The notes beneath the pieces were generated by a model that worked only from the letters and a program-made list of their open reading frames with translations, was not told the DNA's origin and ran no database searches. The position numbers were made by a program, and so were the translations under genes. A stretch of DNA of 64,000 nt from Macrostomum lignano (Eukaryota): assembly GCA_002269645.1 (NCBI GenBank), contig NIVC01002889.1, forward strand, positions 67,680-131,679, read 5' to 3'. Shown piece by piece: positions 691-64,000 of this stretch (its first letter is position 1; the number at the start of each line of letters is the position of its first letter).

Positions 691-3600
691 GACTGCTCAA
701 TCTGCGGCTCGATTCCACCTCGGTCCGCTGTCTGTGGGATTTGAACTCAGTTTCTTAGCCTTGAGAATGAGCTCCCTTCCAGCCAATCAGGAGGAACCGG
801 GGGTTCCCCTGTCACAGCTGCTCAAGTTTCTGCTCAGCCTCTCTCAGTCCTGCGCGCAGTTCGGAAACTTCACAACGTTCCATTTAGATTCAAATCAATT
901 GATCTTTGATGAGTGATTGGGGAATACAAATATCCCTCATCATGCTTATTCGCCCTCACTAAACTATATATTATAGTTACTGGTGATTCAAGATACCCCC
1001 TAAAAATTAGCATGATTAATTTTACTTTTATAGCTGTACAAGTCTAAAGCCTTTTCGTCGGTAACTACATGTACAGGTTTTTACGGTTATTCGATCAGGC
1101 AGTCGCGTACTTTTAATATAGTTAATTAAAAAATTCAACTGCCGTTTTAGTAGCGTTTCTTGTTAATTAATACGTCAACGTACGTAATTAATACTAATAC
1201 GCCAATTAGAATGTCTACCACATGTGCTTCTTGCATCAGCTCTGACTCCGTTGGAAACTGGCCTTCACCCAGGCGGGGCTTCTGGACCTTCAACAGGTGG
1301 CACCAGGTGACTGTGAATTTCTCCGATGTCTCTGATCAAGAGAGAGTGGGCAAGCCCTCAACATCTGGATATCCAGACGCGATCATTTTTTTTCAAGATA
1401 TTAAATTCGTTTAAAATAGTGCCTAAAGTGTTTAAATGTACTTTAAGACTGTTTAGCGCTGGAGCTCTGCAGTTTCTATTTTATAATAAACAGGTTTGAG
1501 CAGTTGTTTACTCAAGGTATTTTCGATGCTAAAATTATCTTGCAAAAAACATGCATTACGCCCAGCTAGCGAAGCAGCGGCCTCTCAGCAGCTCGGAAGC
1601 AGAGAAGTCCGGAAGCAGTTCTCCCCTCTCTTCGATGAAGTTTTATGCAATACTTTGACTAGGAGGAAACTACATGCCTCTATAGTCCCCTGAGCTGCAT
1701 CCAGCGAAATAAATCAAGTATTTATGGCTAAGTAAAGACACAGAAAAACTTTTCTCTTAAATTATTGCAGAGGATGCGGTCATTCAGACAGCGAATGCGA
1801 TGCCTATATTCAGCTCGCAGATATTTGCTCTTTGCTGCATACGAGTCTACTATAGCTTCTAAGGGTCATTGGTTTTATTGCAGGCCTTCCATTGGGAAAG
1901 ACTGTCATCAAAGCTACGCTCCTTACTAGGTTTACTTTGAGCGAGTTTTAACGTATAACTTAGAATAATTCTAGCTCAATCTCTACGACCCGTATTCGCC
2001 ATGCTCATGTATTTTTAAGCATTATACTTTCAGTCTCCGCCAGTCTGCTAGTTCAAGGACTTCTCATCGGCTCTCAAAAAAACACATGGACATCTGAGTA
2101 TTACCACAAGGACCACTATAGGAATTAGGACGCCTAGCTATTTGGATAATGCCTATATGCAATTAATGATTTTGAGATCTGGAGAACTACTCGATCTCTA
2201 TTGCCAATAAAAACACACACTTTGGTGATGGGTAGCAGAATTCGAGCTTGGGCAGATTTCTAAAAAAGGCCGCTTCGATTCAGCGCGTATCTTATATATG
2301 GCCCCGTAGCCTTTTCTCAGACTTTTTTATGCAATTTGCGTCACAAACCGCGGCTCTGAGTTGAATTAGAGCTACCAATGGTTTCTGGGTGGAAAATACG
2401 ACGTAAAAACGTGTTGCTGAGTGTACGAGCGTAGTTTGTCACATTAATTTTACTTTTTTAATGCATTTTTGCCTGGCTATGCATTAAGAAACAGGAAAGA
2501 AAGGCCGTGGGAGCCTTTATACAAATTGTCACACTTTATACACGTAAGATAGATAACGTCACACGTCTTAGACACGTTAGATAGATCACTTCACACGTTA
2601 GATATGTAGGTAGAAAATGCTTATATGAATTTCTCTTCTGCCCACGGTTGGCGATAGATTTGAACAGCATAAAATGATTTCGGATTCCTAAATCCACTAA
2701 AATATTCCACACGTACGTATGGGGATCTGTGCAGCATGCGGGAGGCCGCTGGATGCTCCAGCTGAAATAGTCTCTTTTTCTGCCTGGCATTCACATTCAC
2801 TGAATTATTGATTTATTCAGCTACATCAAAAGGCGTCAATGACGCGCGCATCAAAAGCAACAATTTCAGCATCTGCTCGTCATCTAATACTGTAAATTCA
2901 TGCCGTTTAATTGACATTTTCTGTCTCGTACATGTATTAATTCGCATCCTCGCTAGATCGAGCTCTTTAACAGTTCCTTCCTTGCCCACGACTATCAACG
3001 TTCGATGATAGCAAAATACCTTTAGATATAAGTTGAAAGAACCCCATTAGAATTTCAAAGCCATAATGTTCTTCAGTAGGAACTTGTGGATTTTTTATAC
3101 ATGTCGTTCTAAAATTGAAGAAAAGAGCTGATTGGCTTGATACATACTTACGATAGAATCATTTCAGGTACGAGTATAGCAGACTTGTTTCTGTTTTGGG
3201 CCTGATACGCCCAAGCAATGCTACCTTAATTCTGGCAGTAGATTAAATTATTTCACTGATTTGTCGCTAGGCGGCCGAAACTAGCGCATATGCTTTGGGC
3301 CATAGAGAAACCGAATGGTAAGATGCATTAATCCAACACAAACAAGTGTAGATTGCAAAAACCGCTACGAGGATCAATAAGAGCTATGAAAAATTCAAGT
3401 CATATCAAAAGATGAACATTTTGGGTCTGCCTCATTGATAAATAAAACCATGATCTGAAAAATTAAAACCTCCATTCTCCGTAATGTCTTTTTCGGTAAA
3501 GCCTGCCTTCTAAAATTTCCAAGAAACATAGTTTTCCGTCCTAGAGTTAGTCTTGGTACGCGAGGACGGTGTAGCTAGATTGAGTTATAGTACGAATAAA

Positions 3601-4809
3601 AAGTTCATTGCGCGGAATCATATTAGGATTTTTTCAAAACTTACTATATTCGTCGTTTTGTTTCCTTCTTCCTTCACATCCTTTCTATTCAGTTTTAGCA
3701 TTTTCTTTTTTTGTTATACATATTATATTTACACTACCGACACAAATTTAACAGTAAAAATGACGCATATTTCTTTGCATACTTCAAAATAAAACTTGTT
3801 GTGAGGCTGACGATAGCCGACGTTAAATAAAACGAAAGGCTAAGCATTCTTTTCTAGCCATGTAAAATCACGAAAATTGGATTCACTTAAAAGATGTCGT
3901 CACAAGTAGTTACTTCAATCAATGTGAGTGTAATAATTTTCTCACTTGTCTTGTATTGATCTTTGAATTACTACTTCCTACTAGTTTTATTCCTAATTAC
4001 TGAAATCTGTTAACAATGCAACTTTTATATTTTACAGTAAAGATAAATGAACGAAGATCAATCAATTAGTTAGTCAATCGTTTTGTAAAGTTTTGATGCG
4101 TTAAAGTTTCTTTCGCTTACGAGCTTGTATATTAGCTATAATTTTTAGATGTGGAAATCATTTTTAATTTCAATTTCTAAGCATGATGTGCATTTATTTT
4201 TTGGCACCTGCTCTAGCTTTTTTGAACAATAAAAGTGTTCAAAGTTTTTAGCAGTTAAAATCACATCAATTTTAATTTCAGATTCAAAGGAATGAGTGTC
4301 TGGTATAAACATTAGCTATATTTCTTTGAAAATTTTGAAACTGCTACTTGGATAACCAGAGATTATATTTTAAAAATGAAGAAATTTTTAGTTTTCTGAA
4401 TCACAGATTCTCAGTTCATTATAATGCATTTATTCGAATATAGTTGAATTATTTAGTCTGAATAAACTTGTATTTTATTATTTGTGCCTGGCCCTGAAAT
4501 TATACTTTGAAGCTACTATAAAAAATTATTCTTTTTTAAGATGAAAGTATCTTGTCACTTCTTTTGCCTTTTATCAAGATACTTACCTTTATTTTAGGAA
4601 CAAAATACTGCGTAAAAATTAAAACAAAAATTGTATTTTTTTAGCTGTCTTGAATAAAAATCCGTTAGAAAATTAACGATGTGCTCAATCTGGGATGTGT
4701 TTGAACAGAAAATAAACTCATGGAGGATTTGAGAATCCAGAAAGCTACGTCACTACACTGTTAGTATATCTGCTATATTCATGTTTCAATCAAACCATCA
4801 CAAACCGCA

Positions 4810-5812
4810 ATGCCAATCGTCCAGCTCGATTTGTTCAACCCGTCGCCGGAGCAGCAGAGCAGAGCCCGAATCGCCTACGCCATCAACGTGTTCGACGTGC
4901 TGCCCCTGCCAGCCCTGCTAGTCGTGGTGTTCCTCGCCTACTCCATCGTGCTGCTGCTGTTCCGCTTCCTGGCCTATCGGGTTGTCAGCGAAGCCGGCGA
5001 GCCGAGCAGCGAGCCCAGCGGGCCGGGGCCTCTCCGCTCCTGCTGCCTTTGCTGCCTGTCCTGCGCCGACGCCTGCGACTGCTGCGACAGTCGGGGCACC
5101 GTGGCCGGCTGCTTGAACGGCGTCTGTCCGCACAGGCGCAGCGGCGTCAAGTACTCGGATGTCATGCTCTGCCACACTTGCGGGGTGAGCACGGACTGAT
5201 TGAGGCGAAACCTTTAACTGCTTCATCCCACCATTAGACACTTTAGTACTTGACCTCACCTGACACCCCGATACCTCATATGACACTCCGATACCTCATC
5301 TGACGCTCCGATACCTCATCTGACAGCCGAATACCTCATCTGACACCCCGATACCTCATTTGACACCCGAATACCTCACCTGACACCCCGATACCTCATA
5401 TGACACTCCGATACCTCATCTGACGCTCCGATACCTCATCTGACAGCCGAATACCTCACCTGACACCCCGATACCTCATTTGACACCCGAATACCTCACC
5501 TGACACCCCAATACCTCCTCTGACATCCCAATACCTCATCTGACATCCCCATACCTCATCTGACACCCGAATACCTCACCTGACACCCCGATACCTCATC
5601 TGACACCCGAATACCTTATCTAACATCCCAATACCTCATCTGACACCCAATACCTCATCTGACACCCCAATACCTCATCTGACACCCAAATTCAGCGTTC
5701 CACCGTCGACTGCTGCGACGCAGACTGCGATGATTGCCTTTGCTTCTGCTTCGAGTGCAAGTTCCGGCCTCGGGGCCAGGCGCTGCTGGGCAGGCAGGAG
5801 CCGCTGGACTGA
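4810..5812 (+). CDS. Two-exon single-pass membrane protein with Cys-rich C-terminal region (about 163 aa), family not recognised
   Basis: Exon 1 4810-5184 (donor GGG|GTGAGC), exon 2 5696-5812 (TTCAG|CGT) join in phase 0: ...CHTCG-RSTVDCCDADCDDCLCFCFECKFRPRGQALLGRQEPLD*. One hydrophobic stretch (VLPLPALLVVVFLAYSIVLLLF), GC-rich codons. Confidence 0.75.
5255..5690. repeat. About 20-bp intronic minisatellite (ACCTCATCTGACACCCCGAT)
   Basis: About 21 slightly variable copies filling the intron of the Cys-rich gene. Confidence 0.95.
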
Positions 5813-51700: not shown

Positions 51701-54626
51701 GAGCTACAGATAGAACTCATGTACCTCAGTATGAGCTACAGATAGAACTCATGTACCTCAGTATGAGCTACAGATAGAACTCATGTACCTCAGTATGAGC
51801 TACAGATAGAACTCATGTACCTCAGTATGAGCTACAGATAGAACTCATGTACCTCAGTATGAGCTACAGATAGAACTCATGTACCTCAGTATGAGCTACA
51901 GATAGAACTCATGTACCTCAGTATGAGCTACAGATAGAACTCATGTACCTCAGTATGAGCTACAGATAGAACTCATGTACCTCAGTATGAGCTACAGATA
52001 GAACTCATGTACCTCAGTATGAGCTACAGATAGAACTCATGTACCTCAGTATGAGCTACAGATAGAACTCATGTACCTCAGTATGAGCTACAGATAGAAC
52101 TCATGTACCTCAGTATGAGCTACAAATAGAACTTCAGGGATACATAATGTACTTTTAACGCTTTGCAACAAGCCATTTTGCTCAGAAATTCTGCTCATTT
52201 GTTGCACATTACAGCTTGAGAGCTTGCATTATTCTACATAAACGCGTCTCTCAAAACTGATCCATGGAAATGATAAAAATGGCATTGCCACCAGCACAGG
52301 CCAGCAGATTCGCATTACAATGTGCGCACACAATACAATAAAACAACTCATCTTGGATGATTGTACATTCTTTGTCATCATCTGTAGCGCCTGCATCCGG
52401 GTTGCTTTCAATCTCCCTCACTCCCCTCCACTCTATCCTCTGCCCAAGTCACGTGTGGCGTACAATGCGCCTCTGGACAATGCCTGTCGTTTAGTAAGCT
52501 TTGTTTCAATCCATGGAATCCACCCATTAGTCTAAAAGTCTTGCTGTTTTATTTTCCAGGAAATTCAGATTCCGCAAAGTTTATCAAATGCGCTAAATTT
52601 AACGTTTACAAATATTCAAATTCTCATTTGAATGGAATTTTCTCATCTAATTTTCTATTACCCAATTTCTTAAAACTCAGATTCTATGAACTTGTTTAGA
52701 ATCTCAGAGATTGACTCCAGAATCTCTAAAGTTCAGAATTCCTGAAGTTCAGACTCCCACAAGTTAAGAATTCCTGAAGTTCAGAATCTCTACAGTTCAG
52801 AATACCTGGAGTTCAGAATCTCTACAGTTCAGAATCCCTGAAGTTCAGAATCCCTGAAGTTCAGAATCCCTAAAGTTCAGAATCCCTGAAGTTCAGAATC
52901 CCTGAAGTTCAGAATCCCTGAAGTTCAGAATCCCTAAAGTTCAGAATCCCTGAAGTTCAGAATCCCTGAAGTTCAGAATCCCTAAAGTTCAGAATCCCTG
53001 AAGTTCAGAATCCTTGAAGTTCAGAATCCCTGAAGTTCAGAATCCCTGAAGTTCAGAATCCCTGAAGTTCAGAATCCCTGAAGTTCAGAATCCCTAAAGT
53101 TCAGAATCCCTGAAGTTCAGAATCCCTGAAGTTCAGAATCCCTAAAGTTCAGAATCCCTGAAGTTCAGAATCCCTAAAGTTCAGAATTCCTGAAGTTCAG
53201 ACTCCCACAAGTTAAGAATTCCTGAAGTTCAGAATCTCTACAGTTCAGAATACCTGGAGTTCAGAATCCCTAAAGTTCAGAATCCCTGAAGTTCAGAATC
53301 CTTGAAGTTCAGAATCCCTGAAGTTCAGAATCCCTAAAGTTCAGAATCCCTGAAATTCAGACTCCCACAAGTTAAGAATTCCTGAAGTTCAGAATCTCTA
53401 AAGTTCAGAATCCCTGAAGTTCAGAATCCCTAAATTTCAGAATCCCTGAAGTTCATAGAGCAATTGTTCTATACAATTAGATTCACTGAAAAGTACATAA
53501 TAAAGACAATAAGCGGCACCAACCTCGATCAGCACACTTTTCTTCAGAATCTTGATGGCGAACAAATTGCTTGACGCCTTCTCCCGGCACAGCACCACCT
53601 TGCCGAAGGTGCCCATGCCCAGCACCTTCAGCATCTCGAAGTCCGACAGGCTAACCTTGTTCCTGGGTCTGCGCGAAATTCAACGGAAAGTGTAATGTAA
53701 AATTCAATGCAATTATAGAATCTCTATAAACCTTTTGCCATAAAATTTTATCATAAAATTAATGCAACTAAAAATTCTCACAAGTTCATATCTAACAATG
53801 CCTTTATTAATAACTTGCTGACTCCCTCACAGCAAACTCCCTCACTGCAAGCTCCCTCACTGCATCTAGCTGACTCCCTCACTGCAAACTCCCTCACTGG
53901 CTATCTAGCAGCCCCAATCTACACGGGAACTCACAGTTCTGGCGGCTCCACAGCATCTGACGCGGTGCTAACAGTGGCCGGACACTCTCCAGACGACTTG
54001 TGCATATTAGTGACATTAACAATTGCGTTCACCCAGGCCTCGCGCTCGGCGTTAGTCTCAACGTAAAACATTCGATCAACAATATTGGTGCCCTGCAGGC
54101 CTCGAAGCAGAAATGTGAATGGCTTTGGCGTATCCATGAACAGAGCTTTGGAATTTTTAACAGTGAAATTGTTCAGCGGCTGTAGGTACTCTTTCTGAGT
54201 CTTTGGCTTCACTTTATAGCCAAAGAATGTGCCATCCTGGTACAGTATGAAGTAGCGACGCCGCCAGTTTTTAATGTGCTCGCCGCGTTTCATGAGGTAG
54301 CCTTCCTTAATTAGCGACTTGGAGATTGGAATGCGACTAGGCAGCGGCTCGTGCGGCATGCTGCAGGCCTGGCTAGGGGCTTCGTGAAACAGCTGCATGT
54401 GCTGGTTCATGTAGTTCAGGCTGGGCACTTCGTTTGGCGGCGGCCTCTGACCGCCGAAGTACTGCGACACCAATGTCGACACCGAGTCCATTGGAGAGCA
54501 GTTCGCCTGCTCACCGCCGGGAGGAAGGTGCAGCTGCTGCTGGGCGGCTGACGACTGCGGCGATTCGCCACAGTCAGGATTTTCAATTTCCATATCCATA
54601 TCGCCGTCTTCGTTGCGCTGTTCCAT
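48729..54626 (-). CDS. AKT: RAC serine/threonine kinase Akt/PKB, four exons, about 586 aa
   Basis: Exons 54626-53935 (PH domain [20 protein letters not shown]), 53668-53524 ([16 protein letters not shown]), 50291-49895 ([24 protein letters not shown]), 49255-48729 (DWWG, FEKFSF hydrophobic motif). All phases join. Confidence 0.97.
49430..49795. repeat. Degenerate about 30-bp repeat (GAGATCTCATGGGAGATGCAATGATCTGGGT), Akt intron 3
   Basis: About 12 diverged copies. Confidence 0.85.
50385..52135. repeat. 32-bp minisatellite (TCATGTACCTCAGTATGAGCTACAGATAGAAC), about 54 copies, Akt intron 2
   Basis: Near-perfect head-to-tail array without spacers. Confidence 0.98.
52730..53455. repeat. 16-bp minisatellite (GAAGTTCAGAATCCCT), Akt intron 2
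   Basis: About 45 copies. Confidence 0.95.
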
Positions 54627-54669
54627 GCATGCAGTTACACGGCGCTTTAGTCGATTAGTAGAAGGGCTA

Positions 54670-56109: not shown

Positions 56110-56570
56110 TTACTGCCTGAATTCCGCACAAACACGAACTAAAACTGCCTCAATTCCGCACAAACACGAACTAAAACTGCCTCAATTCCGCACAAATACG
56201 AACTAAAACTGCCTCAATTCCGCACAAACACGAACTAAAACTGCCTCAATTCCGCACAAACACGAACTAAACCTGCCTCAATTCCGCACAAACACGAACT
56301 AAAGCTGCCTCAATTCCGCACAAACACGAACTAAAGCTGCCTCAATTCCGCACAAACACGAACTAAAACTGCCTCAATTCCGCACAAACACGAACTAAAC
56401 CTGCCTCAATTCCGCACAAACACGAACTAAACCTGCCTCAATTCCGCACAAACACGAACTAAAACTGCCTCAATTCCGCACAAACACGAACTAAACCTGC
56501 CTCAATTCCGCACAAACACGAACTAAAACTGACTGAATTCCACACAAACACGAACTAAAACTGCCTAGAT
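56110..56570. repeat. 32-bp minisatellite (AATTCCGCACAAACACGAACTAAAACTGCCTC), about 14 copies
   Basis: Direct reading. Confidence 0.95.
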
Positions 56571-58923
56571 TCTGCCCAGTTCGCACACAATATCAGTCTA
56601 TAAATTCTAGTAAAAAATTTTACGTCAATAAGGACATTGTCACAACTCACATACTGACTATTGCAGGAAAGAGACGCGTCAGACAAAATTAGATGTAGCT
56701 ATACTTGATGAATACACAGACAGACACGATATAATCCAAATCCAGCGGGGTGAATTCCGCGGGATTAAGCACGGGGAACACACATATATAGGCATATACG
56801 GGAGATGGAAACCGTATAAAACGGCACAAGGGAGGGGGGATTGACAGTTCTAAGCATGGCTTTATGCAGAAATCCCAACAGCCAATGAGAATGAAAGGAC
56901 ACTTTGACATTAAATTCAAACTACTAGACTGGCTGATGTTTGAGCAGGCTGGGTGAGACAGAGTTCAGCCAGATGGATTTAGATGAGGAGAAAGCGAAAA
57001 AGAAAAGTAAAACTCTTCTCGTGCCCGCGCGCTGCAGCCGGGGTCAGAGAAATCCCGAACAGCGCGGCGCCGCACTTTCTTGCCTCCTCCCGAAAGAACA
57101 AGCTCGTTGGCCAATGAGCGATCAGGTGATTAGCTGTGATTAGCAGAATCTGAATTCTGAGCATTCCGAGACTTGACTAGCCTCCTGTTTGCGTGCGAGT
57201 TGAGCACAACGAATGCAAAACCATCCGACCCTTCTCCCCAGAAGGAACAAGCTTAGCCGGCCTAAGTTGATTTACACTAGGCTCAGTGGAGATGAAGCCA
57301 GCTGAGCTCACTTCAGTAACAGAGGCTGAGCATTGTAATCAAAGCCGAAATAATTTTGCAGATTTCAATAAGAGCAAGCTCTAATGATTCTGCAATGCAG
57401 AAACAGAAGAACCATGGCATACATGGGGGCACTCCATCGAATTGAGATAAATTTACCTTTCATATTATTTTATATTTGATAATGGATTAAACCATACTTT
57501 AAACTTTGGCATCCTGAATTCCTACCCAGATGCCTAATTGAAACTCTGTTTTTCCAAGCTGTGAACAGAGTCCACACACTCTGCAACTTTCATGGGTCAG
57601 AGAGGCTTAGGTAGAGAAGTGTGAAAAGTAGATATTCCAGCCATTTTCAATTGGGCATCCTGAATTAAGACCTAGGATGCCAAATAGAACTACAATTCTA
57701 ATATCAAAAAACATAACAGATAAAAAACAATACTAATACTCACTACAATCTAATTTTTCTTTGAAAGAAAGAGCAAAAAGCTCATCTAAATCATAAAAAT
57801 ATTGTCAACCTAATTTGATATCAAATGCCCCAAGCCTTGGCTTTAAGTTAAGACTCCTCTGTTTGCTTTTTTTCAATAATCCAATGTGATAAGAAAACTG
57901 ATGAATAAAGGGCAAAATATGAGTATATTATATATTTTTGCCTTTAACATCCCTTCTTAAATTCATTTAAATTGTATTAATCAAGTATACTTTTACTTTT
58001 TATATATAACTGATAATATTCTTAGAGTAAAATCATACAGGGTATAAATTAAATAGAAAGCCAAAAAGAGACAGAGCAGCCAGTTTCTTTATTGAGTTTA
58101 ATAACTAATACTATTTCTTCTTTAACTAATTAAATTTACTTTGAACCTTTTGGCAGTCTTTAAAATAGACTCATTTCCTTAGATTGAGAAAAGTCCAAGC
58201 ATTAATAGAATTAGTAGCCATTTAGAAAAAGAAATATCCTAGCCTATTAATCTAAAGAAATTGTTTCAAGCAATACAAACCTCTTAGAACTATGACACTC
58301 TGATCTTAGGAATGCCCAAAGAGAAAGAAATCCCTTATAAGATAAACAGTGCTATACAATATAACTACTTAGGCTAGACTCCTGCGCTAGGGGCCTACTC
58401 AATAGATAATCCATATGTTACCAATAAACAATGCATGCACTACCAGTAATGTATATACATTGTGCATATTGTGATGGTGTCAAATTCTGTTTGTCCAATA
58501 CTTTATGGATTATTTAAACTTAACATATAATAGATATGTGATTTTTCAATATAATCTTAATTAATTAACCTGATCTATTCTAATCTAATCTAATCAATAC
58601 TTGAGTTTGTTTTAATTGTATCTCAAAAGTGAACTATTTTGAAGCATAATTATTGTCTCTTTTTACCCTCTACTCTGCTCTCTATGCAGGCACTAGCATT
58701 GTCTTGTGACCAATCATATGCTACAGTCTCTATTGCAAAAAACTCAATCTATTACATGCTAGACTAAAGGCCCTTCATTATATTACACATTTAACAACTA
58801 CAGAAGCCTGTCCCTTTCAACTGTAAATTGACTGTCAATTAAATAAAAATAAAAATATTCTTATATATTCTTAGCAAAAGCATACTTTATGACTATACTA
58901 CTTTTCACCTTGTCACATTTTAA

Positions 58924-58972
58924 TGGAGGTCCCACCAAGACTCAAACTTGGGTTGCAGGATTCAAAGTCCTA
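58924..58972 (-). pseudogene. 5'-truncated tRNA-Gln(TTG) pseudogene with encoded CCA
   Basis: Minus strand: TAGGA CTTTGAA TCCTG CAAC CCAAG TTTGAGT CTTGG TGGGACC T CCA = anticodon arm (TTG), variable loop, T arm, 3' acceptor strand, discriminator and CCA. No matching 5' acceptor strand or D arm; T loop TTC is mutated to TTT. Confidence 0.8.
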
Positions 58973-61708
58973 AGTCACCTCATCACAATATACCCTTTCT
59001 TGTTCAACTTTAACAAATCTGCAATGCAATTTAGACAACTTGACATTCATTTTGATCATCAATTTTTATACTTTTAGTTAGACTTTTAAATTAAACAAAG
59101 CCAGTTCTTCATTGAGAGTACTTTGTCTATGGTCTAAATTCAAGTTTTGGGGCAAAGCTCACATTCAATTTCAACAACTCTAATTCAATTTAGACATGCT
59201 AATCTGAGCCCTTTAGACTTTTGCTTCCTGTCAGCTGTCTCCGACCTTGAGAAAGAAAAGAATTGGAGACTAATGTATATTCTGTAAGAAAGGCTGGCCT
59301 CATCCTAAAACCTTCAATAACAGTATGCATGAACATAATAGAACAGAGAAAAATTCAATGTTGAAATTGAATGGGAAAAGGTGTAATTTAAGCTATATAT
59401 GATATACTATTAAAAATATAAAACCTGAGTAACAACTTTTGGAGATCAATTTTGTAAGATCAATTTTAGAAAGTAGCTCGTAGAACAATCATACCAGCAA
59501 ACTTGTAACAATTTGGCATCAGTAGTAGATTTAAAAGAGCAGAGAAACCCTATAACATAACTATTTGCAACTCATATTGTTGCTCTTGCAATAATGAAGT
59601 ATATTTGTTAATAGTCTTAGTGCAATACCAAATATAAAAAGAATATATTGTAACAAATTCTAAAAGAAAGAAAATTGGCTTGATTTATTCTTGATTTTCA
59701 TCTTGTTGGAAAGTTGGTGCTATTAGCACAATTTTTGATAGACATTAATATATAAAAATAGATAAAAATTTGACAAACATTCATCTTTATATCATCTTCA
59801 TCTTTGTTAGACTAAAAGAAAAAAGTTAGAGCAAAAAATTAGATAACTTATCAATTTCTTAAAAAACATAATAACAACTCCAACTTTCACTCAATATAAC
59901 TCCAATTTTCAATTATATATAATATGTATAAATATGACAATGTATGTTTGTCCAATTTTATCAATATTCATCTACACAAGTCAGACCAATTACATAACTA
60001 TTGCTTAACACTGAAGGCTCAATATTAATGCAAAAATGCATATAGTTAATGTAGATAGGCAAAGTACTGCACTATGGAATATTACCACTGTGTTAATGAT
60101 TCAATACTAATGCTAACTAGCATTGTACCCTATTCTTTACCCTATAAATAAGCTGCTTTTTGGTGTAAGACAACAAGACAATATAATATTAGATAAGAAT
60201 GAAGCTTCCCACATTTGGCTACTTCCTTCCAGTGTTTCTGAGTTAAAAAGAATTGAATTGGGATACTTCTTGGACTATTAGACAGTTTTTATAGAAACAT
60301 CAATGCTTCTGGACAGAAGCAGCAAAGAAGCAGACCATTTTTTCAGCGGGTAAAAGATAGGCCTATAAAGCCCTAAAACATATACCTAATGATACACACA
60401 CTGCAGTGCAAAAGTATTCATTTATAATCATAAAGCAACATGTCAATATAATACTTAGCAATAAATTAATTTGCCATAAAAGCATAAAACCATGAAGCAT
60501 TAATCCTTTTTACATTGCTTGGGAATTCAAGAACCAGTCCATAGTCTTGTGGAGGCCTTTTTTGGAGAAAATTCCCTGCATGCATAGGCTTCTGAACATC
60601 TGCACCATATACAGCATGGCTCAAAGCCATTTCTACCATGTAGCCACATACTTAGTGTGGATAGCGAACTATACACTGCTCCACAGTATGCAAGATGGTG
60701 CAACTCATAAATCACAACCAATTTACAAATTCACAAAACTAAATGAACACTCTTGTTAACAAAATTTTGTTTTCCTAATAATTTTTTACTGAATATTTAT
60801 CTATATTTTGCAGCAAATTTGTTTTGATTGTTATAATTTTAATAAATACAGTTTTTTTCAAGTTTAATTTTTTAAAATTATTACTCTTTTAATAGAATTT
60901 TTCAAGTAAACACAAAACATCAATCTTAACAAAATAACAAAAAACTGATGTTATGAAGCACTTTCTGTCACTAAAATGACAAAACTCACCAAATCTTTTA
61001 ATTTTCTTCTTCAAAAAAGTTGTGTATCTATCATAAAAACAACATGTAACTGTAAAAACTATTTGTCATAAAATAAAAGGCACTGGTTGCAACTGCAAAA
61101 AAGGTCCTTTATTGTTGCAACACCTTATAGGCCCTTTTTGTAAAACATGACTGCTAACTAAATGCAATTTCCATGGTGGCCAAAAAATGTTCCCACATGG
61201 CCTGCACATTTACAAGACTATGGGAACCAATATATAAATATATTAATTAAACCAGAGCCAATTGATTAGTTTGCTGTCTGTATCAACAATTATCTAGGAT
61301 ACCAAAAAAGCCCCAGACAATGGAGGCTAATAATTAAGTGAATAATGGAAAGGCAAGAATGAAAGTCTAAGATGTGGCAAAAAAGGCAGCTATGACAAAG
61401 GCTTCTATCTACAAAGGCCCTTAATGCAGGGCCATAGTGGCATAGATTGTGACCATTACTCTGGTGGGCTATAGGAGGCCTACTAATATATAAAGCATTG
61501 TAGCTATCAATGCATTGTCTATGTAAGTCCATTAGCTTATTGAAATATGATTTTAAAAAGGCCAATAAATATAAACATAACAGAATATAGACATGAAAAG
61601 ATTTATTCTTTAGATACTATTCCAGAATATGGAAATCAAGGAAATTGTTAATAGAAAATTGTATCAATATTGCACTAAACTTCAACTAACTTTTCTCTAA
61701 CATATATG

Positions 61709-61878
61709 CGCAACCTTGGAAATCACTTAGCCATTTCTATTGGCAACACACACACACACACATGTAAGTCACTATTGGCTAAGAGCAATCACGTGATTAC
61801 TATTTTGTCCAATAGCAACTTACATATATATGTTGCCAATAGAAATGGCCAGTAGATCCCTAGGTTGCATCCAAGCAT
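61709..61878. other. About 170-bp imperfect palindrome with central AATCACGTGATT
   Basis: GCCATTTCTATTGGCAACA (61730-61748) pairs perfectly with TGTTGCCAATAGAAATGGC (61831-61849); inner ATGTAAGT/ACTTACAT and TATTGG/CCAATA and outer GCAACCT/AGGTTGC also pair. Confidence 0.75.
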
Positions 61879-64000
61879 GGTGCAAACTATTAGAGTTAGG
61901 TCCCAATGGGCTCTCTTTGTAGTATATACCAAGCCCTATTTGGCTAACTTTTTGTACAAAGAAAAAGTTAAAATAATCATCTAGGCCTACAGCTTTTAAA
62001 AGTAAAACTAGTCAGTTTCAGTTAAACAATGAATGTCAATAATTATTATCCAAAAGAATAATAATAAGTTTGAAAATATATATAATAAGGCACATTTTTT
62101 TCTAGAAATGTTTAATTTTTATTGCTAAATTGAATTCCCACCAAAAAAACATTTTAAAACATGATCATTTGTTTAAATATGTTATTTGTTCTACTTAGGT
62201 GAATTTTGTTTTAATTATGTAATCAATTTTGTTATGAATAGAGTTTTGTTTTCATTGTGATTGGTCAGCCAATGGAGTATTATTCAAGTAGTATAAATAA
62301 AAGCTAAATAAATACTAGAATACTTCAACCTTGGAAGTTACCCTACTAGTTAATCTTTATTTGGTTCAAACTAAAACTGAATAGTCTTTTGTCTTAAGTT
62401 ATTTGAGGAATATTAAATTAATGATTGTTGAATGAAACATGATTGTGGGTTAGAAGAGCCATGTTGGATAGAATAAGGGCATTTTGCTAGCTAAATAAGC
62501 ATTTTGCAATAAAAAGAGAAAGGCAGATTGCCCAGATAAGGTGGAATTCCCCAGGAATAAGTAAACTGTTACAATTGAAATACAGGATGTATTGCTAAAA
62601 GTTGGAAATGACAGTATAAAAGCTAGAAACCCTTGGTCATTAATAATACTATATTGGACTATATAACTTAATAATTAGTAGTCAGCAATGTCTTGCCACT
62701 TAGGCACTGATGCTACTAGGGTAACTTGTACTGATAATAGCCATATATGTATATCTCTAGGATAGGACAATTAGACCTAGTACAAATTGGTGGCTAGTCC
62801 AACTAGTAGGAGTTAGATAGGGAAGACCATAGTCCAGATCATGCTAGGTGTACACCTAAACAAAAGTTTATATTTACAAATGAATGCTAAAAAAATGCAG
62901 TACACACCTATCTTAAAACTCTGCAATGTTGCAACAATAAATGACCTTTTTACGTTGTGACAATAAATGACTTTTTTCATTGTGTAATAGATTCTTTTTG
63001 ACATAATTTGATTAATTTTCCTATCTTTTCAGAGATACAATTTATAATAGAAAATTGATATATGCAAAGATTTGTTTAAAAGCCTTATTACAAGCTTAAA
63101 AACCAGAAAGCATGAAATTTTGGCTTAAAATAAACTTTTTTTCATGATTTTTCTACTTTACAATAACTCTTATGCATGATTCTATAAAGTGCATGCTAGG
63201 TGTATTTTCTTAGGAATGATGCATACCAACTGTGCAAAGCCAAAGCCAATGCACGCCTAAATTTTTAGGCATTTACTAGATTATTCAGAGTATAGAGGGA
63301 AGAAATAGGTCTATAATAACTTAGAGTCAGTGATGAAATTTTAATAATTAGAGAAAAGTTTTGCTTTACATATATATAAAAGAGGGAAATGTATATTCAC
63401 TTATTAAAATTTAAATTTAAATTAAATTTACTTATTTAAAAATAAGTAAATTGATAAAAAAAGCATTAAACAATTTGGTAATTTTGACTAGAGAAAAAAT
63501 TAAAAAATTTAAATTTCATGCAAAATAAAGCTATGTTCAAAGTCTTTCTAGATAAAACTAAGCCTGTGGTACAAAGAAAAAAGCTGAAGGCTATTACCAA
63601 AAGCCTCTTTAGCTTTTATATGTAGGCCTAGGCCCTAGCCTAGCCTAGCGTAGCCTAAGTAGGTTATTAGATAGATATTCATAGAAAAAATTACAATACC
63701 TAGTTAAAATTCAGCGGGTTGTGCAAGTATGATCTTAGTGAAATAGATGTATATATTCGACCTATACTAGGTCTACACAACCTGAGAAATGAGAATGAGA
63801 TCATCTGTATCAGTTCTAACTTATGGTTCTATACAATACACTAATGTCGTAATGACAATTTGGAATGAAAAAGGCTATAAACTCAGTCATCAAAAGCTAG
63901 GCCTACATAAGGATAGTGGTATTAGCTAAGTTGAATAAGACTTTATAGATGACCTAAAGAAGGCTTAATAGACAAATGAAAATAAAAGACTAGATAGATT

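Follow-up and report, generated by a model that had tools for sequence, protein, structure and literature searches.

CpG methylation that targets transposable elements (TEs) without gene-body methylation has been described in fungi and in nematodes that keep DNA methyltransferases (DNMTs), according to the available sections of a 2022 review, which give genome-wide methylation patterns in flatworms as unknown (PMC9246332). The same sections report that some free-living flatworms retain DNMT1 and DNMT3, both of which were lost in Schmidtea and in parasitic flatworms (PMC9246332). In cnidarians and other invertebrates, transposons are also targeted, which has been read as genome defence, together with gene-body methylation and a preference for intragenic TEs, as described in the available text of another study (PMC8857917). 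In the present study, we analyzed a 64,000-nucleotide stretch (the window) of the flatworm Macrostomum lignano (contig NIVC01002889.1, here C2889), which ends in an AT-rich domain with almost no CpG. The results suggested, with a probability of roughly 0.8, that this domain is the scar of 5-methylcytosine (5mC) deamination on transposon islands.

As in the nematodes and fungi covered by the review sections (PMC9246332), CpG decay was limited to repeats, genes were spared, and a low global level of methylation is likely. The present case differs in that the host is a flatworm, that the decay occupies kilobase-scale, sharp-edged, AT-rich islands including neighboring sequences, that a CAG signal accompanies it, and that methylation is deduced. 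The targeting of transposons and the genome-defence reading are shared with the cnidarians and other invertebrates of the available text (PMC8857917), whereas three genes and flanks were without CpG decay here. The CpG decay of methylated transposons is already well known. What appears to be new, as far as our incomplete literature search shows, is the probable flatworm layout, with islands methylated and genes not, and a heritable CAG trace; neither a flatworm methylome map nor an invertebrate germline CAG signature was found in the literature searched, most subscription papers being outside its coverage. The sequence record predicts where methylation would be located, in transposon islands and not in genes, and it is relevant to the question of which is ancestral in animals, the methylation of TEs or that of gene bodies.

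Between positions 57,440 and 64,000, we counted 13 CpG, where the local base composition predicts 150.6 (observed/expected ratio, o/e, 0.086; GC content 30.3%), and GpC, CpA and TpG were each at or above expectation. Both results agreed with a preliminary description of this DNA, which had reported about a dozen CpG and frequent GpC, CpA and TpG. It had also stated that CpG was plentiful elsewhere. This was true of the non-tandem rest of the window (o/e 0.89; 1,981 CpG in 40,723 bases) but not of the tandem arrays at 14-15 kb and 51-52 kb, which were CpG-free owing to their repeat unit. AT-richness does not explain the loss, because an AT-rich control stretch at 3,001-5,000 of the window (GC 34%) keeps a CpG o/e of 1.02-1.04, so that the domain was CpG-poor also against matched AT-rich DNA. 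Among the AT-rich 500-bp bins outside the domain (n = 90), the o/e was at least 0.7 in 33 and below 0.2 in 27. These results suggested that the domain has lost more than 90% of its CG pairs, apparently via C-to-T changes.

The sharp boundaries described earlier were confirmed on the left side, where a changepoint was placed at 57,261 (range 57,229-57,497). The right edge, read from copy C1856, was fuzzier and lay at about 63,600-64,190 in window-equivalent positions, giving a length of about 6.2-6.9 kb for the whole domain. The window end is the end of contig C2889; in contigs C1856 and C1497, which also contain the region, it is flanked left and right by CpG-rich DNA. In agreement with the preliminary description, no intact gene or sizeable tandem array was present. 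The longest open reading frame (ORF) of the domain had 108 amino acids (aa), and the tandem repeats were just two overlapping two-copy repeats of 25-26 bp. A hidden gene was ruled out, since a Pfam match was found in 0 of the 15 ORFs of at least 60 aa in the domain region (L013:1-8200).

The fate of CpG sites was read from 31 chosen alignments with relatives, in which some sites are shared between alignments. Of the 280 aligned CpG of relatives, the domain has kept 13, and 232 now appear as CA, TG or TA; counted as distinct window sites (n = 149), 5 were kept and 122 read CA, TG or TA. In a three-way test, changes were counted where two CpG-rich references agree, and window copies were compared with control copies. 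The C>T fractions in window copies were 39/43 at CpG, 40/154 at CpA, 24/132 at CpT and 9/81 at CpC, against 9/45, 6/124, 3/94 and 5/51 in control copies, while the T>C and transversion rates were similar in both. When segment D (Table 1) was left out, the window fractions were 15/16 at CpG, 19/86 at CpA (P = 3e-4 vs. control) and 7/71 at CpT. The C>T decay was present on both strands, by which strand-biased editing of a retroelement was ruled out as a candidate. The TpA/ApT ratio of the domain was 0.99, and its GC content was 30% compared with about 38% in aligned relatives.

The copy of a host tRNA-Gln in the domain differed from seven intact genes at 6 of 44 positions; all four CpG had changed by transition, with two other changes, in support of the earlier argument that this fragment speaks for deamination. 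Such a bias from CpG to TpG or CpA against un-eroded copies, on both strands, is the pattern of TE-targeted 5mC. The preliminary description had proposed localized cytosine methylation and deamination in a mostly unmethylated genome. This proposal withstood the three conditions named there as refuting it, since CpG is kept in matched AT-rich DNA, paralogue differences are biased to CpG transitions, and the left junction is bridged in three of four runs; the methylation itself is what we infer.

The earlier suggestion of one large repeat or foreign element was not borne out. Instead, the domain is a nest of at least eight small native repeat pieces, including a long terminal repeat (LTR) accompanied by a copy of the tRNA-Gln primer, the end of a Tc1/mariner-like element and miniature inverted-repeat transposable elements (MITEs) (Table 1). 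In own-genome searches, which scored the best 40 candidates each and thus give a lower bound of repeat coverage, dispersed families A-H matched at least 3,519 of 6,561 domain bases (54%). Like the first kilobase, the right end of the domain was without a paralogue among these candidates. A single big element with paired ends was also considered and rejected, as no inverted repeat joins both edges among the 25 longest listed.

Table 1. Positions of the CpG-erased island, its repeat pieces and neighboring features in the 64,000-nucleotide window.
Feature	Position	Strand	Remarks
First coding exon (PH domain), Akt/RAC kinase gene	53935..54633	-	Outside island; domain upstream of gene
CpG-rich stretch with CCAAT-like motifs adjoining left edge	56570..57260	-	Candidate Akt promoter
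CpG-erased AT-rich island	57260..64000		Possibly ~0.2 kb beyond window end; also in C1856, C2876, C1497
Eroded sequence, one 62-bp match only	57440..58466		Old host DNA or repeat eroded past recognition
Family A, LTR-like repeat, TG...CA ends, 0 CpG	58470..58917	+	CpG-rich copies elsewhere: 7-18 CpG over aligned part
tRNA-Gln(TTG) 3' 44 nt + CCA	58924..58970	-	Primer-binding position behind LTR
Family B, end of ~2-kb inverted-repeat DNA transposon	58987..59358	+	Relatives L044/L045 carry DDE_3-like ORF
Family C, dispersed repeat piece	59659..60068		Own-genome matches
Segment D, first part	60325..60538		One other locus among best candidates (four near-identical contig copies)
Family G, ~200-bp dispersed repeat	60861..61073		Inside ~700-bp insert splitting D
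Segment D, second part	61239..61697		0 CpG here vs. 38-40 CpG at other locus
Family E, ~180-bp palindromic MITE-like element, very high copy	61700..61882		
Family H, older dispersed repeat	62060..62755		68-79% to relatives
Family F, ~470-500-bp MITE, imperfect terminal inverted repeats	62827..63295	+	Intact 8-bp target duplication (62,819-62,826 / 63,296-63,303)

Family A has the features of an LTR retroelement end, namely TG...CA ends, a primer-binding site, paired copies (two copies 1.4 kb apart in locus L038) and a short target duplication (4-5 bp at the solo copies L006 and L009). No gag/pol domain was found in the 13 scanned ORFs of Family A loci L036, L038 and L039. The primer-site copy of tRNA-Gln comprised 44 nt plus CCA, compared with about 15 nt in the relatives L038/L039, as if the reverse transcriptase had continued deep into the primer. 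ARAGORN predicted 0 tRNA in the window, and the Rfam tRNA match in the domain (24 bits) was below the cut-off of 29 and stood beside three chance-level matches. A DNA search with the eroded piece returned only itself, and a pattern search found the seven intact tRNA-Gln genes. The DDE_3-like ORF of the Family B relatives fell just under the Pfam cut-off (E 2-4e-6); Family B is thus putatively Tc1/mariner-like. Family F has short terminal inverted repeats, an 8-bp target duplication, a non-coding sequence and a high copy number, as in hAT-type MITEs, and is probably hAT-like, a label for which we take the 8-bp target duplication as the rule. Among the 62 ORFs from paralogue loci, the Pfam matches were only DDE_3 (two), RVT_1 (one) and an unrelated TBCC exon (one). 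Compared with the window, C1497 (L020) lacks 58,404-59,015 and 61,018-61,117; the former absence is a deletion, because the LTR and the tRNA piece lie in this stretch, together with the beginning of Family B. The same contig has an insert of about 300 bp within MITE F, with only three CpG.

The Family F set comprised 18 copies (30 loci minus 13 with duplicate flanks, plus the window copy). At 21 of 25 CpG columns, both TG and CA were seen among 11 erased copies, and these copies therefore decayed independently after insertion. A young clade of six copies was half-decayed. In Family A, all nine CpG-rich copies lay in CpG-rich flanks and all four erased copies in erased flanks. A correlation between element and flank was present for A and absent for B, C, E and F. 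We also compared the two contig copies C1856 and C1497, whose divergence was 3.1% inside the domain (151 of 4,839 sites) and 1.2% outside (423 of 34,314). Outside, C/T differences occurred at 59 of 3,518 CpG-bearing sites (1.7%), not above other contexts. Inside, 10 of 26 CpG-bearing sites differed, some of them possibly new gains, and YA contexts (Y, pyrimidine) differed about three times as often as YT/YC (P = 4e-7), compared with a ratio of 1.3 outside (P = 0.10). Collectively, these results suggested that CpG loss occurred in place, copy by copy, after insertion.

One old-subfamily F copy, L134 (G000:C1759:33,789-34,309), has kept 28 CpG, compared with 1-7 in its siblings. The explanation that CpG-rich F copies are simply young is true of six copies and was ruled out for L134, which offers a natural control for the factors that shield a copy from methylation.

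Eight arbitrary 50-kb blocks (400 kb) from large contigs were analyzed with a two-state model. Nineteen islands of 0.6-3.3 kb were found in seven of the eight blocks, covering 29,510 of 257,715 non-tandem bases (11%), with a GC content of 30% and a CpG o/e of 0.09, compared with 46% and 0.90 outside islands. Fetched repeat loci matched islands five times more than other DNA (16% vs. 3%); this locus set is biased to the families of the window, and between-block matches were 7% vs. 3%. The island of the window was about twice as large as the largest of the 19. The domain is an ordinary, though large, member of a common island class.

The ratio of product to substrate in islands relative to AT-rich controls, as read from composition, was 2.05 for TAG/CAG and 1.12, 1.10 and 1.16 for the CAC, CAA and CAT contexts, respectively. 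CAG was the most depleted non-CpG context across islands, with ACAG and CAGG as the top contexts. The TAG/CAG index per island had a median of 1.39 (19 islands) compared with 0.74 in 32 AT-rich controls (P = 2e-6), and was 1.50 in the window. These results indicated a DNMT3B-type preference for CAG over CAC in sequence composition. In the available text of a preprint, human DNMT3B shows a +1 G preference in non-CpG methylation via K777, and the N779A mutation modestly lowers CpG specificity and keeps this preference (bioRxiv 10.1101/2020.04.27.064386); the DNMT3B motif is given as TACAGG in the available sections of PMC11564873.

The genome has three cytosine methyltransferase loci (DNMT1, DNMT3 and DNMT2), each on three contigs. 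The presence of DNMT1 and DNMT3 fits a free-living flatworm as the probable host. Contig C866 contained DNMT1-RFD, BAH and methyltransferase pieces, and C2545 contained ADD_DNMT3 and methyltransferase pieces. Among the best candidates scored, all 12 PF00145 matches lay in these three loci, and none was of the RID/Masc1 type. When the target-recognition loop of DNMT3 was aligned to DNMT3B chains, the residues matching K777 and N779 were K and C, respectively, in all three contig copies of the single DNMT3 gene. The likeness to mammalian DNMT3B, as far as the available text goes (bioRxiv 10.1101/2020.04.27.064386; PMC11564873), thus consists of CpG > CpA, +1 G, ACAG/CAGG as top contexts and the lysine at the K777 position. 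The differences are that heritable substitutions in an invertebrate, not methylomes, were read here, that the N779 position is a cysteine, and that there is a single DNMT3 gene. From the composition and the loop residue, it is fairly probable that the CpA/CAG excess arises from non-CpG methylation. A germline CAG signature, if true, would mean that non-CpG methylation shapes an invertebrate genome in a manner tied to one DNMT3 residue. A stretch of about 13 kb adjoining the DNMT2 locus (L107-L108, G000:C33:109,000-122,000) had 57-70% GC and a CpG o/e near 1.0.

In the mechanism that we propose, repeats would accumulate into a nest, and MITE families such as E and F would seed islands or be drawn to them. 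DNMT3 would densely methylate the nest in cells giving rise to the germline, genes and flanks would stay largely unmethylated, and DNMT1 would maintain CpG methylation. The methylation would spread over neighbors (the LTR, the tRNA copy and segment D), and the deamination of 5mC would cause C-to-T changes on both strands, with the nest drifting to 30% GC. The DNMT3B-like lysine in the target-recognition loop of DNMT3 would cause the CAG signal. The ADD domain is excluded by H3K4 methylation, and the CpG-rich candidate Akt promoter at 56.6-57.3 kb may set the sharp left edge. Silencing is the likely role, the mutational erosion probably being a by-product. The CpG o/e of gene exon pieces was 1.07 for Akt, 1.01-1.07 for DNMT1 and 0.95-1.10 for DNMT3, so the exonic CpG depletion of gene-body (mosaic) methylation was absent from the three genes tested. 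Germline 5mC would thus probably occur in transposon islands only, and gene bodies would carry little of it. A bolder version, which we hold tentatively and at slightly under even odds, is an inverted invertebrate methylome: no gene-body methylation, thousands of kilobase-scale transposon islands on which a DNMT3B-like enzyme places dense methylation in stem or germ cells, and a heritable CAG mutation signature. If true, this would be a slow RIP-like (RIP, repeat-induced point mutation) repeat eraser in an animal, and the genome would be split into a 46%-GC CpG-rich compartment and 30%-GC CpG deserts. No bisulfite-like conversion pattern was found in the 8 runs examined of 24; X16 and X17 were without a C>T/G>A excess.

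Several observations weigh against 5mC deamination on transposon islands as we propose it. About 46% of the domain was without an assigned paralogue, and the control copies in the three-way test lost CpG too (9/45). The CpT excess depends on segment D, for which both references derive from a single locus. A CpA-specific excess was absent from three further erased copies of Family A (CpA 7/58, CpT 8/64, CpC 3/16). Within the domain alone, CAG did not differ significantly from other CpA (16/307 vs. 44/1,341, P = 0.13). Transversions were also raised inside the domain in the comparison of C1856 with C1497 (1.0% vs. 0.57% outside); part of the speed-up is therefore possibly relaxed constraint or alignment noise. 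The CpG of the element was unlinked to that of the flank in Family E (rho 0.07, n = 17) and Family F (rho 0.05, n = 30, duplicate contigs included), and CpG-poor flanks also surrounded CpG-rich F copies. The E and F MITEs may therefore either seed islands or land in them. Finally, the absence of gene-body methylation was read from three genes plus flank alignments of about 34 kb.

Some of these observations would suit a variant of our explanation, in which the deamination of 5mC still accounts for the CpG loss, a part held with equal confidence, but the CpA/CAG excess stems from mutagenesis during repair near T:G mismatches, or from a general AT bias in low-recombination islands, and not from non-CpG methylation. 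It is consistent with the higher divergence of every class inside the domain, transversions included, with the non-significant difference between CAG and the remaining CpA contexts (CAH) there, and with the erased copies that lack a CpA preference. However, the excess was ordered CpG > CpA > CpT > CpC, with CpC equal to the control, and CAG stood out across the 19 islands, while a general bias would not pick ACAG/CAGG. We regard this variant as possible, although doubtful. A different process, a methyltransferase-dependent and homology-triggered burst of C>T on repeats as in the RIP of ascomycetes, would take the place of slow deamination at a lasting methyl mark. As in RIP, repeats were made AT-rich by C>T on both strands (GC from about 38% to 30%), CpA>TpA was raised and TpA was gained (TpA/ApT 0.99). 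Measured against the usual RIP index thresholds, however, the expected dominance of CpA>TpA with CpA/TpG depletion was not found: CpG predominated (91% vs. 26% at CpA), and the substrate index (CA+TG)/(AC+GT) was 1.36 compared with 1.32 outside. The decay of the young F copies also looked gradual and clock-like, many high-copy repeats were unaffected, and the PF00145 matches among the best candidates were confined to DNMT1, DNMT3 and DNMT2. A RIP-like process is accordingly improbable.

One large element, or foreign DNA that stems from a CpG-poor donor, eroded before arrival, would account for the sharp left edge and for the absence of paralogues at 57,440-58,466 and the right end. This explanation was ruled out for the assigned half of the domain, as 54% of the domain matches native families that have CpG-retaining copies elsewhere; the domain also holds an eroded copy of the host's own tRNA-Gln and a Family F element with its own intact target duplication, and the 25 longest inverted repeats listed do not pair its edges. 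We consider it very unlikely. That the domain lies at a contig end could point to an assembly chimera, in which DNA of a contaminating methylated animal was joined to the contig. The same left join was nevertheless present in C2889, C1856 and C1497, the latter two having CpG-rich flanks on both sides. The read continuity at 57.4 kb, a check named in the preliminary description, was confirmed in three of four runs: contigs of X1, X2 and X3 (three studies, one possibly the assembly source) bridged 57,440 with flat depth, and X11 was gapped there. A chimera was ruled out by these results, and we give it a negligible chance. The deamination of 5mC on native transposon islands thus stands as the explanation that we favor.

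The Akt/RAC kinase gene next to the domain had flatworm proteins as its best matches. In runs guessed to be RNA, coverage was low and uneven to either side of the left edge. In two of these runs, the 5' end of the Akt transcript was an 18-nt piece absent from the locus, presumably as in spliced-leader trans-splicing. The 18-mer had 140 exact genomic copies, many of which form pairs on the same strand at a spacing of 6.7-7.9 kb; a mobile element may thus carry a copy of the leader in its terminal repeats. At the likely trans-splice acceptor (window about 54,628-54,633), the window sequence resembles the 3' end of the leader and is without the AG present in both C1856 and C1497, probably as an assembly or polishing artefact. 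The introns and spacers of window positions 1-56,570 were dense in minisatellites, with 46 Tandem Repeats Finder rows window-wide and periods of 3-273. Most loci, including the domain, all three DNMT genes and segment D, were present on three or four contigs in nearly identical form, an indication of duplicated chromosomes or of haplotypes left uncollapsed.

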